From Candidatus Multivorans sp. (GTDB lineage: Bacteria; Acidobacteriota; Thermoanaerobaculia; Multivoradales; Multivoraceae): DNA of 64,000 nt. The translations under genes were made by a program, and so were the position numbers. Numbering within the stretch: the first letter of the stretch is position 1; the number at the start of each line of letters is the position of its first letter. Under the pieces are notes generated by a model. It was not told the origin of the DNA. It searched no databases and saw only the letters and a program-made list of their open reading frames with translations. This document shows, in pieces, positions 46,856 through 51,383 of the stretch. The stretch is taken from contig OZ245033.1 of NCBI GenBank assembly GCA_965224025.1, forward strand, positions 64,001 to 128,000, given 5' to 3'.

Positions 46856-47499
46856 GCGTCGGTCGTCCAGTTGCTCCGCAGCGGATCGAGGATGTCGCTC
46901 AGCGCTTCCTCGACAGTTTCCGCGACGGTTTCGATCGGCGCCGCCGCGTCGATGACGCGAAAGCGATCCGGCTCGCCGGCGATCCGTTCCTGGAACGCTG
47001 CATGGACCCGGCGGTAGAAGGCCAGGCTCTCCCGGTCGATGCGGTCGGCGGTGCGACCGCGCCGCCGCCGCCGCGCCTCCTCCGGCGGCAACTCGAAGAA
47101 GAGGGTGCGGTCTGGCGCGCGGCAGCCGGTGACGAGCCTGTCCGCCTCGGCGATCAACTCCGCCTGCACGCCCCGGCCACCGCCCTGGTACGCGTAAGTG
47201 GAATCCGTGAAGCGATCGCACAGGACGACCGCGCCCCCGGCCAGGGCCGGGTCGATCACTTCGATCAGGTGCTGGCGGCGGCTGGCGAACACGAGCATGA
47301 GCTCGACCACGCCGTCGACCTGAGCCGCCTCCCTTCTCAGGAACAACTCGCGCAAGAGGTCGGCGAAGGGCGTGCCACCGGGCTCCCGGGTGACCACGTG
47401 GGCGACTCCATGGCGTTCGAGGCGCGCCGCCACGCGTTCGAGCTGCGTCGACTTGCCGCTGCCGTCGAGGCCCTCGAAGGTGATGAACTGGCCGGGCAT
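46852..47499 (-). CDS. tmk: Thymidylate kinase
   Basis: Motifs FITFEGLDGSGKSTQ, TREPGG and CDRFTDSTYAYQG. Confidence 0.97.
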   Translation of the reverse strand: MPGQFITFEGLDGSGKSTQLERVAARLERHGVAHVVTREPGGTPFADLLRELFLRREAAQVDGVVELMLVFASRRQHLIEVIDPALAGGAVVLCDRFTDSTYAYQGGGRGVQAELIAEADRLVTGCRAPDRTLFFELPPEEARRRRRGRTADRIDRESLAFYRRVHAAFQERIAGEPDRFRVIDAAAPIETVAETVEEALSDILDPLRSNWTTDA

Positions 47500-47607
47500 C
47501 CGGTGGCCATGCTAGGAGTGTCCGCAGCGTTGTCGCTGCGCTGTCGCGCAGGGAACAGGCAGCGAGTAGCCAACGTTACAGCGGCGTCGTGGGTTCATAG
47601 AGTTGGC

Positions 47608-47763
47608 CGCGCTGGGCAGCGAGGCCGCGCAGGCACTGGTGTGTTGGCGCCCGACTAGGAGTTTGGCCCGGACCGTGATCGGCGCTCTGACGCTGGCGGC
47701 GCGGCTTGTGTCGCGACCCCGTATGCAAGATTGAGCTTTTCGCCGCGGTCTCTGCCCAGCGCG
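47608..47763 (+). ncRNA. Putative IS110 bridge/seek RNA
   Basis: Long closing stem 47608-47629/47744-47763, preceded by GTTACA-N17-TAGAGT. The loop contains CTAGGAGT and ATGCAAGA matching the element junctions. Confidence 0.55.
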
Positions 47764-47796
47764 ACGATTGGATTCTACATCTACGGGAGGCAGGGG

Positions 47797-49116
47797 ATGG
47801 CAAAGCGGAAGGCGGAGCGTCTGGAAGTCGTTCACCCGGATTGCGCCGGTGTGGACGTAGGCAAGCGCAAGCACTACGTGGCGGTGGCCCCGTCGCGTTT
47901 CGAGCGGCCGGTGCGCAATTTCTCGTCGTTCACGGAGGACCTCGAGGCGATGGCCTCGTGGCTTCAGGAGTGCGGCGTGCGTGAGGTGGCGCTGGAGTCG
48001 ACGGGGGTGTACTGGATTCCGGTGTTCGAGGTGCTGGACCGGGCGGGGTTCGAGGTGCATCTGGTGAATCCTCGGGCGACCAAGCAGGTGAGTGGCCGCA
48101 AGAGTGACGTTCTGGACTGCCAGTGGATCCGGCAGTTGATGAGCTACGGGCTCCTGCGCGGTGCGTTTCGCGCGCCGGACGAGTTGTGTCCGCTGCGTTC
48201 GTACACGCGGCAGCGCGCCCAGTTGGTCCGCGACCGCAGCCGCGCGGTGCAGCACATCCAGAAGGCTCTGGTGCAGATGAACGTGCAGTTGGACAACGTG
48301 CTGAGCGACATCATGGGCAAGACCGGCCAGTTGATCGTGCGCGCGATCGTCGCCGGCGAGCGCGACGGCGCGGCGCTGGCCCGTCACCGGGACGGTCGCT
48401 GCAAGGCTGGTCCGGCTGTGATCGCGGCGAGTTTGCAAGGCAACTGGCGAGACGAGCACCTGTTCGCTCTGGGCCAGGCGCTGGCCCGCTACGACATGCT
48501 GCAAGGCCAGATCGAGATGTGCGAGAAGCGCATCGACGCCGAGCTCGACGGCCTGGCCCAAGACGGCGTCGAGGACGCGCCGCCGCCCGGTTCGAAGGCG
48601 CGCGAGCGCGCCCTGCGGAAGCGGCTGCATCGCATGCTCGGCGTGGACCTGGTCGCCATTCCGACGGTCGGCGTCGAAACCGCGCTGACCTTCGCCGCTG
48701 AGATCGGCCCGGACCTGTCCCGGTTTCCCTCGCAGGGCAACTTCTGCTCGTGGCTGTGTCTGGCTCCACCGACCAACATCAGCGGCGACAAACGGCTGAA
48801 CGGCCCTCCCGTGAAGCAGACCAACCGGGTCGGCCAGACGCTGCGCCAAGCCGCCACCACAGCCCGCAACAGCAAGACCGCCATCGGAGCCTCTCACCGC
48901 CGGCGTCTCCAGCACATGGAGAAGGCGAAGGCCATCAAGGCCACCGCTCATCAACTCGGCCGACTGATCTACGCCATGCTGACCCACGGCGAAGAGTACG
49001 TCGAGCGCGACCTCGCCGAAATGGAGGCCGTCCGACGCGAACGACAAATCAGAAACCTGCAGCGTCAGGCCCGCCGCCTGAATCTGGCTCTCGTGCCGAC
49101 CGAACATGCCGCCTGA
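47797..49116 (+). CDS. IS110-family recombinase/transposase
   Basis: DEDD RuvC-like motifs GVDVG, LESTG and KSDVLDC; C-terminal domain AEIGPDLSRF..WLCLAP..ISGD; SD GGAGG. Confidence 0.95.
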   Translation: MAKRKAERLEVVHPDCAGVDVGKRKHYVAVAPSRFERPVRNFSSFTEDLEAMASWLQECGVREVALESTGVYWIPVFEVLDRAGFEVHLVNPRATKQVSGRKSDVLDCQWIRQLMSYGLLRGAFRAPDELCPLRSYTRQRAQLVRDRSRAVQHIQKALVQMNVQLDNVLSDIMGKTGQLIVRAIVAGERDGAALARHRDGRCKAGPAVIAASLQGNWRDEHLFALGQALARYDMLQGQIEMCEKRIDAELDGLAQDGVEDAPPPGSKARERALRKRLHRMLGVDLVAIPTVGVETALTFAAEIGPDLSRFPSQGNFCSWLCLAPPTNISGDKRLNGPPVKQTNRVGQTLRQAATTARNSKTAIGASHRRRLQHMEKAKAIKATAHQLGRLIYAMLTHGEEYVERDLAEMEAVRRERQIRNLQRQARRLNLALVPTEHAA

Positions 49117-49297
49117 ATCGCGCAACCTGCGCTGCCAACAAGGAACCCCTACCCGTTTGTTCCATGCAAGACTGCGCTGCGTCCGCGCAGCGCAGGGAGT
49201 TTGCGGCACAAGGTCATGGCAAGGACGGGATGGGCCGAAACTCCGAGCCTGCGAGGCGTTTCGGGGCGGTATGGGCGACGGTGTACTATGCCCGCTC

Positions 49298-49552
49298 TTG
49301 AGCAATCAACCCGACCCGTCCGCCTACTGGCGAGCGAACCTGCGACTGATGGCGATCCTCCTCGCCGTCTGGTTCTCCTGTTCCTACGTGCTCGGCATCT
49401 TCCTGGTCGAGCCGCTGAACGGCGCCCGGGTGGGCGGTTTCCCGCTCGGATTCTGGTTTGCGCACCAGGGATCGATCTACGTCTTCGTCGTTCTGATTCT
49501 GGTCTACGCGGCGGTCATGGACCGTCTCGACCGCCGCTACGGAGTCGACTGA
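49298..49552 (+). CDS. DUF4212 small membrane protein (SSS transporter partner)
   Basis: AYWRANL..LLAVWF..GFPLGFWFAHQGSI..FVVLI..DRRYGV; directly upstream of the symporter. Confidence 0.88.
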   Translation: MSNQPDPSAYWRANLRLMAILLAVWFSCSYVLGIFLVEPLNGARVGGFPLGFWFAHQGSIYVFVVLILVYAAVMDRLDRRYGVD

Positions 49553-49682
49553 GGCGCTCGGGCGAGCCTCGTCGAACCGACCCATCTGACCGCGAGCGAA
49601 TGACGACGCACGGGCGCTGCCAGCACCGCCAGGCACGTTCTCGGCGTCGACACGGCCGAGGGCAACGACCAGGGCGACACTC

Positions 49683-51383
49683 ATGAACGTTCAGGCCTGG
49701 ACGTACCTGATCGTCACCGCGACCTTCGCGCTCTACATCGGCATCGCCTGGTGGAGCCGGGTCAGGTCGACCTCCGGTTTCTACGTCGCCGGCCGCGGCG
49801 TTCCGGCGGTCGCCAACGGCATGGCGACCGGCGCCGACTGGATGAGCGCGGCCTCCTTCATCTCGATGGCGGGCCTCGTCTCCTTCATGGGCTACACCGG
49901 CACCATCTACCTGATGGGCTGGACCGGCGGCTACGTCCTGCTGGCGCTGCTGCTCGCGCCCTATCTCCGCAAGTACGGCAAGTTCACGACCTCCGAGTTC
50001 GTCGGCGACCGCTACTACTCGGACGCCGCTCGGCTGGTCGCCGCGGGCTGCACGATCTTCGTCTCCTTCACCTACATCGCCGGCCAGATGCGGGGCGTCG
50101 GCGTCGTGTTCTCGCGCTTCCTGGAGGTCGAGATCCACTGGGGCGTGGTGATCGGCGTGGTCATCGTCTTCTTCTACGCCGTGCTCGGCGGCATGAAGGG
50201 AATCACCTACACCCAGGTCGCCCAGTACTGTGTCCTGATCGTCGCGTACCTGATTCCGGCAGCGGCGATCTCGTGGAAGATCACCGGCAACCCGATCCCG
50301 CAGTTCGGATTCGGGGGCGCGGTCCAGGAAGGCCAGGCGGCGGGCGTTTTCCTGCTCGAAACCCTGGACGCCCTGCACCGGGAACTGCGGCTGCCCGAGT
50401 ACACCGCGGCCTTCGTGCCGGGCAAGAAGAGCATGATCGACGTCACCGCGATCACGCTCGCCCTGATGGTCGGCACCGCCGGCCTGCCGCACGTGCTGGT
50501 CCGCTTCTACACCGTGCGCAGCGCGAGAGCCGCCCGCTGGAGCGCACTGTGGGCGCTGGTCTTCATCGGCCTCCTCTACACCACCGCGCCCGCGGTCGCC
50601 GCCTTCGCCCGCGTCAACCTGATCTCCACCCTGCACGGCGCGAACTACAGCGAGGTGCCGGAGTGGTTCAAGAGTTGGGAAACCACCGGCCTGATCGCCT
50701 TCGACGACAAGAACGGCGACGGCATGATCGACATGGCCGACGGGGCCAACGAGTTGACCGTCGACCAGGACATCATGGTCCTCGCCAACCCCGAGATCGC
50801 GGAACTTCCCGCCTGGGTCGTCGCCCTGGTCGCCGCCGGCGGCCTGGCGGCGGCGCTATCCACAGCCGCCGGTCTGCTGCTCGTGATCGCATCGGCGATC
50901 TCGCACGACGTCGGCAAATCGGTCCTGTGGAAGGACATGAGTTCGCGCAGGGAACTCCTGCTGGCGCGGACCACCGCCGCCGCCGCAGTGGTCGTGGCCG
51001 CCTACTTCGGCATCTCGCCGCCGGGCTTCGTTGCCCAGGTCGTCGCCTTCGCCTTCGGCCTCGCCGCGGCCAGCTTCTTCCCCATCCTCGTGCTCGGCAT
51101 CTTTACCCGCACCACGACGAAGGAGGGGGCGATCGCCGGCATGAGCACCGGCATCCTGTTCACCGGCTCGTACATCGTCTACTTCCGCCTGATCCGGCCC
51201 GAAGCGACGGCGGAGGACTGGCTGTTCGGCATCAGCCCCGAGGGCATCGGCGCGGTCGGGATGCTCATCAACTTCGCCCTGGCGATCACCGTGAGCCGCT
51301 TCACCAAGCCGCCGCCGGAAGAAGTGCAGCAGTTGGTCAGCGAGATCCGGTTGCCCCGCGAGCGCGCGGCGGAGTCGCCGTAA
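49683..51383 (+). CDS. Sodium:solute symporter (ActP-like cation/acetate symporter)
   Basis: Motifs FYVAGRGV, ADWMSAASF, GGMKGITYTQVAQY, GTAGLPH and GLAAALST. Confidence 0.92.
   Translation: MNVQAWTYLIVTATFALYIGIAWWSRVRSTSGFYVAGRGVPAVANGMATGADWMSAASFISMAGLVSFMGYTGTIYLMGWTGGYVLLALLLAPYLRKYGKFTTSEFVGDRYYSDAARLVAAGCTIFVSFTYIAGQMRGVGVVFSRFLEVEIHWGVVIGVVIVFFYAVLGGMKGITYTQVAQYCVLIVAYLIPAAAISWKITGNPIPQFGFGGAVQEGQAAGVFLLETLDALHRELRLPEYTAAFVPGKKSMIDVTAITLALMVGTAGLPHVLVRFYTVRSARAARWSALWALVFIGLLYTTAPAVAAFARVNLISTLHGANYSEVPEWFKSWETTGLIAFDDKNGDGMIDMADGANELTVDQDIMVLANPEIAELPAWVVALVAAGGLAAALSTAAGLLLVIASAISHDVGKSVLWKDMSSRRELLLARTTAAAAVVVAAYFGISPPGFVAQVVAFAFGLAAASFFPILVLGIFTRTTTKEGAIAGMSTGILFTGSYIVYFRLIRPEATAEDWLFGISPEGIGAVGMLINFALAITVSRFTKPPPEEVQQLVSEIRLPRERAAESP

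Follow-up and report, generated by a model that had tools for sequence, protein, structure and literature searches.

The window analyzed here is a stretch of 64,000 nucleotides from Candidatus Multivorans sp. (contig OZ245033.1, positions 64,001 to 128,000; all positions below are those of the window). It very probably holds a recently active insertion sequence of the IS110 family that recombines at an AG core and whose left end encodes a bridge (seek) RNA. The ends, core, and target of this element are fixed by its copies and by empty sites, and the left end carries a conserved RNA structure with three guides that covary with their DNA partners. In the mechanism that we propose, the outer stem of the RNA would enclose two internal loops, of which one, the first, serves the target and the other the donor. 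The guides of the target loop would jointly specify CTAGG-AG-(C)(C/T)TGCGC, the start of a repeat resembling repetitive extragenic palindromic (REP) sequences, and the left donor guide would read the left half of the circle junction. The RNA would be transcribed and then bound by the recombinase, and the right half of the donor would also be recognized. The coordinates of all features are collected in Table 1.

Ends, core, and target of the element

With one copy of the AG core counted (49169-70), the insertion sequence is 1652 bp long. The genome of the window holds 14 intact copies, each of 1652 bp and with at most three differences from the copy in the window; the open reading frames are intact and the RNA region is identical in all of them. 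Every copy reads N/CTAGGAG/TGTCCGC...GTTCCATGCAAG/NN, with flanks that diverge right outside these strings. AG is found at both junctions in 14 of 14 copies, always behind CTAGG; insertion is site-specific, and terminal inverted repeats are absent. Because AG comprises the only bases that the left (..GGAG) and right (..CAAG) junctions have in common, the core is AG, and the target is CTAGG-AG-nnTGCGC. Unoccupied sites tell the same story. The genome contains 23 empty-like paralogous sites that read CTAGGAGnnTGCGC, the start of the REP-like repeat with a single AG. For one copy (C1:3258453), orthologous loci were available in nine relatives: in three, CTAGGAG is directly followed by the same right-flank repeat, one has TTAGGAG, one is diverged, and four are without the repeat altogether.

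An initial annotation, made from the letters of the window, had proposed the core AG, the target ..CTAGG-AG-.., and the donor ..CATGCA-AG-TGTCC.., and all three are borne out by the 14 copies, the 23 empty-like sites, and the orthologous empty sites. It had named other copies and empty sites as a check on the ends; these fix the ends, and no copy with different ends occurs among the 14. If the element passes through a circular intermediate, its circle junction would be CATGCA-AG-TGTCC, and the predicted sequence across the abutted ends is CATGCAAG/TGTCC.

Left target and left donor guides

Two 7-mers inside the RNA region repeat the sequence of the junctions. CTAGGAG occupies the 3' side of the loop delimited by stems P2a and P2b, and ATGCAAG the 3' side of the one delimited by P3' and P5. 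In a set of 29 distinct homologous RNAs, the first position shows 10 guide types and the second 7, every one of which ends in AG. The first 7-mer has an exact cognate match 119-143 nucleotides upstream in 25 of the 29, compared with 29 of 654 non-cognate pairs of guide and search span; 9 of the 10 types have such a match, and the four misses consist of three single mismatches and one rearranged left end. For the second 7-mer, an exact cognate match within 200 nucleotides past the stop codon was found in 25/29, compared with 35/524 for non-cognate pairs, and all four misses are at loci with a disrupted or truncated gene. The matches of both 7-mers thus exceed chance, and the left guides covary with their DNA partners. 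The same was seen in held-out elements, which lie outside the alignment and were found by the covariance model in more distant loci, including a Paraburkholderia plasmid: the left guide stands at the junction in four of five, and the donor guide at the right end in all five.

The initial annotation had put forward these guides as 8-mers, CTAGGAGT (47655-62, equal to 47512-19) and ATGCAAGA (47723-30, equal to 49164-71). Both strings are present, and every coordinate it gave is exact, but seven bases are meaningful rather than eight. The eighth bases match by coincidence: T47662 faces the first base of the element, and A47730 fits only the flank of this copy, the base facing it in the other 13 being A, C, or T. 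The role it assigned to the loop 7-mers, as left target and left donor guides, is upheld by the covariation in homologues. The covariance model from homologous left ends that it had suggested was built, and both guides covary with the flanks as 7-mers.

A natural case of retargeting is found in the same genome, where a variant copy has AATGCAAG at the position of the left guide and sits directly behind a sibling-type right end, ..GTTCCATGCAAG. This variant (L016:1482-1728, at G000:C1 ~909024-909271, together with L015 at G000:C1:2129243-2130580 on the minus strand) is split by an IS1595-type insertion with an 8-bp duplication, ATTTGAAT. Its gene part, with 85% nucleotide identity, is found at a distance of 1.2 Mb and in the opposite orientation; this implies that copies of insertion sequences have rearranged with each other. 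At two further loci, L017 (G000:C1:4134218-4134349) and L042, a right end ..GTTCCATGCAAG runs straight into a bridge-RNA gene, which it joins in the middle, where an ATGCAAG left guide is located. It looks as if DNA encoding a guide had served there as a recombination half-site.

A conserved RNA structure in the left end

An alignment of 24 distinct homologous versions of the RNA (A2) gave a consensus fold of 45 pairs. In this alignment, 96.4% of the cells pair, and 18 of the 45 pairs show compensatory changes. None of 500 column shuffles attained any of the five observed measures, and when the partners were slid by one to three columns, at most seven compensatory pairs remained. The structure ends 31 nucleotides before the ATG of the transposase gene. 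R1, the covariance model derived from A2, has 16 hits in the genome of the window: the 14 copies, a variant, and a truncated copy. Of 151 genomes sampled from the order, 3 have matches to it, including that of the window, all of one genus. Just ahead of P1, most homologues have a -10-like hexamer (TATAAA, TATAAG, TGTAAG, or TAGAGT) at a distance of 5-8 nucleotides, and the -35 is not conserved among them.

The initial annotation had placed both guides within one closing stem, and P1 does enclose both. The long stem that it drew (47608-47629 with 47744-47763) is retained for its outer 12 bp. Its inner extension is less well supported (76.4% paired, with one of nine pairs compensatory) and competes with P2a (47623-26/47665-68) and P3 (47670-76/47745-51). 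In the minimum-energy fold of this copy, GAGGCCGCG (47621-47629) can pair with CGCGGTCTC (47744-47752), as in that stem; the comparative data favor an alternative in which GAGGCCGCG is split between GGCC at 47665-68 and P3. The pairing of 47621-47629 with 47744-47752 may be an alternative, closed conformation of the RNA.

A right target guide on the 5' side of the first loop

The initial annotation could not identify the right-hand guides. The guide to the right half of the target has since been found, and the one to the right half of the donor has not. The right target guide, GCGCAGGC, lies within 47627-36, the most variable stretch of the RNA and the 5' side of the first loop, and so 5' of the left target guide. 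Its register was set by having the C three bases before P2b face the G of the core. If P2a opens, the guide reaches 47624, and in this extended form, GCCGCGCAGGC, it is complementary to G-CCTGCGC(GGC). Out of 10 positions, a mean of 8.4 pair when the 14 occupied sites are taken and 8.7 when the 23 empty-like ones are; in one occupied site, the pairing extends over 11 of 11.

Homologues with other targets pair in the same register. In a family-level permutation (17 families), the observed score was reached in 6 of 5000 trials, and when the 9 families that are not behind sibling ends were taken, in 5 of 5000. For example, the L036 family has CGCGGGC with G-CCCGCG, and L047 and L049 differ in step, with GCAGGC opposite CCTGC in the former and GCACGC opposite CGTGC in the latter. 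In the L033 family, AA of the right target faces UU, and L068 and L083 also pair in the register used for the window. By eye, held-out elements agree: L113 has UUCGCC with G-GCGAA, and L085 has UUAGCC with G-GCTGA. A position 3' of the left guide, as in IS621, was considered for CGCTCTGACG and ACGCT by eye; both were dropped because they are nearly constant among homologues with different targets.

In seven loci of other genomes (L053, L055, L056, L080, L050, L031, and L032), the left target guide has the sequence of a sibling family's right end (ATGAAAG, ATGCGAG, ATGGAAG, or ATGCAAG), and these elements sit directly behind ..TTGTTCCATGxxAG. One of them, L055, is flanked by sibling ends on both sides in the manner of a tandem array.

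The right half of the donor

A right donor guide would be expected in CTCTGACGC, which forms the 5' side of the donor-binding loop. In the copy of the window, GACGCT (47689-94) is able to pair there with AGTGTC if one G-T pair is allowed; this stretch is nearly invariant among homologues with differing right donors, and no covariation was found for it. An alignment-wide scan placed its best donor matches in gap-rich columns, and registers tried by eye did not hold in any of three places: the donor loop on its 5' side, the 16 nucleotides past the donor guide, and the P2b loop. A 9-bp donor match in L051 and L035 was set aside, as it is absent from other families.

Two more conserved features adjoin the donor. 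A terminal hairpin (CGCAGCG-TTGT-CGCTGCG) is conserved among 21 left ends, and a sub-terminal inverted repeat pairs GGAACA near the left end with TGTTCC near the right. The repeat changes in step in other families, such as CAAACA with TGTTTG and CTAACAT with ATGTTAG. It is 6-7 bp long, its left copy lies about 33 nucleotides inside the end, and its right extension consists of 5 nucleotides plus the core. We speculate that hairpin and repeat together might replace a fourth guide.

About 13 miniature elements of roughly 55-60 bp are also present in the genome (e.g., G000:C1 527078-527139, 1070790-1070856, and 5044165-5044224). They begin after CTAGGAG or CCAGGAG, have a different left-end hairpin (TCGAGTCGCGGCGTCCGCGCCGCG..), and end in ..GTTCCATGCAAG. 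They have the left half of the donor in common with the full element, but not the right half, which suggests mobilization in trans with a loose reading of the right half.

The transposase and its relatives

The protein encoded by the element matches two Pfam domains, the RuvC-like DEDD_Tnp_IS110 in its N-terminal part (PF01548; 90.7 bits, cutoff 29, E 1.1e-25) and Transposase_20 in its C-terminal part (PF02371; 44 bits, cutoff 21.3, E 2.9e-11). It scores 270.7 bits, with a cutoff of 140, for the NCBIfam model NF033542, "IS110 family RNA-guided transposase". Similarity to the solved IS621 recombinase is remote (E 1.1e-8, over the N-terminal part); the D, E, D..D, and SG motifs align between the two, and we take these to be the catalytic residues. 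The only matches in the PDB were IS621 and ISCro4, both remote, and the protein search returned no name more specific than "IS110 family transposase".

A search with one genome per species gave 59 loci that encode relatives with 44-86% identity to the transposase. They come mostly from metagenome-assembled genomes labelled Pseudomonadales, Candidatus Multivorans, Foliamicus, or Azotimanducaceae, and about 45 of the 59 keep similar sequence upstream of the gene. A plasmid search returned 502 records, each with less than 60% identity. Two plasmid relatives have an upstream match to the RNA model. In Paraburkholderia sabiae (L113, NZ_CP125298.1; 52% identity), the match is clear (E 1.3e-11), and the guides match both junctions; in Citrobacter freundii (L112, NZ_CP098333.1; 46%), it is weak (E 0.0004), and the guides were not parsed.

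Alternative explanations

Several observations weigh against a bridge-RNA element as we have described it. The copy in the window has no clean orthologous empty site among the 11 loci of relatives examined, which read ..CATGCTAG and continue with unrelated sequence; this is because the copy sits in a repeat that is missing from those relatives. Regarding transcription, the hexamers and the 17-nucleotide spacer of the candidate promoter from the initial annotation are present, but the pair scores 8/12, below the threshold of the promoter scan, which reported 0 sites. A scan of 47000-49700 against Rfam, with E up to 1, gave no matching family, and folds of the single sequence were no better than those of shuffles (z 0.70 and 0.10), which is why the structure was judged from homologues. 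The left junctions in other genomes were partly found by means of the guide itself, which is circular, in a search span only 38-80 nucleotides wide; non-cognate controls were run, and the held-out elements were tested for this reason. For elements behind sibling right ends, the right target guide matches the present right flank at a mean of 3.09 of 6 positions (11 pairs), compared with 3.21 for non-cognate pairs. No right donor guide was found in an anchored scan of about 240 registers (maximum z 2.5, no covarying diagonal), and L085 and L113 have the same flanks on both sides of the loop with different right donors. Finally, production of the RNA and its binding by the recombinase are predictions from sequence.

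This last point leaves some room for the idea that the internal 7-mers are DNA-level sites, that is, copies of the end and target that are bound by the transposase or left over from recombination, rather than guides in an RNA. The fusions at L017 and L042, where a right end joins exactly at the ATGCAAG guide position, suggest that guide-encoding DNA can act as a recombination half-site. However, compensatory changes in 18 of 45 pairs keep a structure around the 7-mers, which a protein-binding DNA site would not explain; the 7-mers occupy unpaired loop positions of that structure, and the protein matches a model of RNA-guided transposases. We consider this explanation very unlikely. Almost no weight falls on another, in which the conserved structure serves transposase expression, as a leader or regulator, and any resemblance of its loops to guides is incidental. 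The structure does lie directly upstream of the open reading frame, and RNA expression and binding are again predicted rather than observed, but a regulator would not need loop 7-mers that track both the insertion site and the element end across 10 and 7 guide types and in held-out elements.

The two remaining alternatives accept RNA guidance and differ on what kind of element this is. It may belong to the IS1111 branch, with its non-coding region moved upstream, instead of being of the IS110 type exemplified by IS621. In the parts of PMC11187229 that describe seekRNAs, the IS1111 order is a complement of the top strand first and then a match to the bottom strand, with the reverse order in the IS110-type ISEc21, and the element has the IS1111 order. 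According to the same account, the non-coding region is upstream in a few members of IS1111. The element has a sub-terminal inverted repeat that covaries, and its protein is distant from IS621. On the other hand, the non-coding region precedes the transposase gene instead of following it (278 nucleotides at the left end and 54 at the right). Its repeat is just 6-7 bp long, compared with 11-13 bp (PMC11187229) or 7-17 bp (PMC11208160) close to both ends in the IS1111 elements described there, and the spacing at the ends also differs, as IS1111 has 6-7 bp outside the left copy and 3 bp outside the right. We take this assignment seriously and judge it somewhat unlikely. A tentative reading, which we find doubtful as a whole, is that the clade represents a distinct bridge-RNA architecture with four joint features: an RNA gene in the left end with a guide polarity inverted relative to IS621; an RNA that would have no right donor guide; a right donor half that would be read through the DNA stem-loop of the left end, bracketed by the covarying sub-terminal repeat; and sister lineages that would have retargeted the target loop to sibling right ends, hence the stacking of elements.

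Relation to known systems

That IS110-family elements recombine under the guidance of RNA has been known since 2024, and most catalogued members have predicted bridge RNAs; another RNA-guided example was therefore to be expected. This one is unusually well resolved from sequence, with 14 intact copies, empty sites, short derivatives, and a natural retargeted variant in one genome, and with an RNA family that Rfam lacks.

In the sections of PMC11208160 on the IS621 bridge RNA, the first loop is assigned to the target and the second to the donor, a logic of left and right halves and of bottom and top strands is described, and the CT core is reported to be highly conserved. As far as PMC11208160 and PMC11187229 describe IS621 and ISEc21, the element shares with them a DEDD and serine recombinase, an RNA whose gene precedes that of the recombinase in the left end, two internal loops with the target first and the donor second, left guides that each equal the left half of the top strand plus the core, a dinucleotide core at both junctions without terminal inverted repeats, and REP-like targets. 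It differs from them in that one outer stem encloses both loops, that scans of the alignment and of about 240 registers found no right donor guide, that it has the covarying sub-terminal repeat and the terminal left-end hairpin, and that the protein is only remotely like that of IS621. Unlike IS621, with its CT core, the window and every homologue examined have AG on the transposase strand, with CT on the other strand, and the right target guide is 5' of the left guide instead of 3'. Read on the opposite strand, the core would be CT and the RNA would fit the rule of IS621, its 5' left guide being long and its 3' right guide having 7 nucleotides. The transposase gene and the RNA would then run antisense to the polarity of IS621.

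The seekRNAs of IS1111 elements (ISEc11, ISPa11, and ISKpn4), as presented in PMC11187229, are alike in guide order and in having sub-terminal inverted repeats, and among the sites that they target are REP sequences and the termini of other mobile elements. The upstream non-coding region, the left repeat copy far from the end, and the lengths of the terminal extensions set the present element apart from them. ISPpu10 of Pseudomonas putida, as described in 10.64898/2026.03.19.712850, also belongs to the IS110 family and relies on bridge-RNA pairing for its insertion into REP sequences; a conserved DNA stem-loop adjoins the paired region. In contrast to the element in the window, it obeys the pairing logic of IS621, its core is CT, and the stem-loop is part of the target instead of the left end of the donor. 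With its predicted RNA, the element thus mixes an IS110-type RNA position with an IS1111-type guide order and a short sub-terminal repeat. The ISfinder tables of PMC11208160 and PMC11187229 may already list this clade or its guide order. The element could serve as a compact test case for the relation of the IS110 and IS1111 branches, and it could show whether donor recognition can rest on DNA structure in place of a fourth guide.

Features in and around the element

Table 1. Positions of the element, its predicted RNA, and its junctions in the window.
Feature	Position	Strand	Evidence or remark
Left target CTAGG + core AG (47517-18)	47512..47518	+	Host, start of REP-like repeat; identical in 14/14 copies, preceding bases differ
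Insertion sequence	47519..49170	+	14 copies of the same length; empty sites
Left-end terminal hairpin CGCAGCG-TTGT-CGCTGCG	47523..47540	+	Consensus of 21 left ends, 6/8 pairs compensatory
Sub-terminal inverted repeat, left copy GGAACA	47552..47557	+	Pairs with TGTTCC 49158-63
Promoter-like GTTACA-N17-TAGAGT	47575..47603 (47575-80, 47598-603)	+	Below scanner threshold
Bridge RNA gene (predicted), P1 5' strand to P1 3' strand, ~160 nucleotides	47606..47765	+	Alignment A2, covariance model R1
P1, outer stem	47606..47617 with 47754..47765	+	6/10 pairs changed on both sides
P2a (GGCC), closes target-binding loop	47623..47626 with 47665..47668	+	99% paired; GC to UA in 2 sequences
Right target guide GCGCAGGC	47627..47634	+	Pairs with top strand G-CCTGCGC, core G + right-target positions 1-7
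P2b, hairpin distal to target-binding loop	47637..47653	+	7 pairs, 2 compensatory, 95.7% paired
Left target guide CTAGGAG	47655..47661	+	Equals top-strand left target + core; would pair with bottom strand
P3 + P3' 5' strands (GGACCGT ... GGCG), close donor-binding loop	47670..47684 (47670-76, 47681-84) with 47741..47751	+	P3 (47670-76 with 47745-51): 3/7 pairs compensatory, 98.2% paired; P3': 100% paired
5' side of donor-binding loop CTCTGACGC	47685..47693	+	Expected place for right donor guide
P5, hairpin distal to donor-binding loop	47694..47721	+	5/10 pairs compensatory, 99.2% paired
Left donor guide ATGCAAG	47723..47729	+	Equals right end of element + core
Transposase/recombinase gene, 439 amino acids from ATG	47797..49116	+	Pfam and NCBIfam
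Sub-terminal inverted repeat, right copy TGTTCC	49158..49163	+	
Left donor ATGCA + core AG, right end of element	49164..49170	+	Identical in 14/14 copies, flanks diverge at once
Right target ACTGCGCTGCGT, host REP-like sequence	49171..49182	+	Copies and pairing counts at sites

To the left of the element lies a thymidylate kinase gene on the minus strand. The right flank at 49186-49260 is a member of another repeat family, of which the genome has many copies (74-92% identity over about 75 nucleotides), and relatives have no such repeat at the orthologous site.

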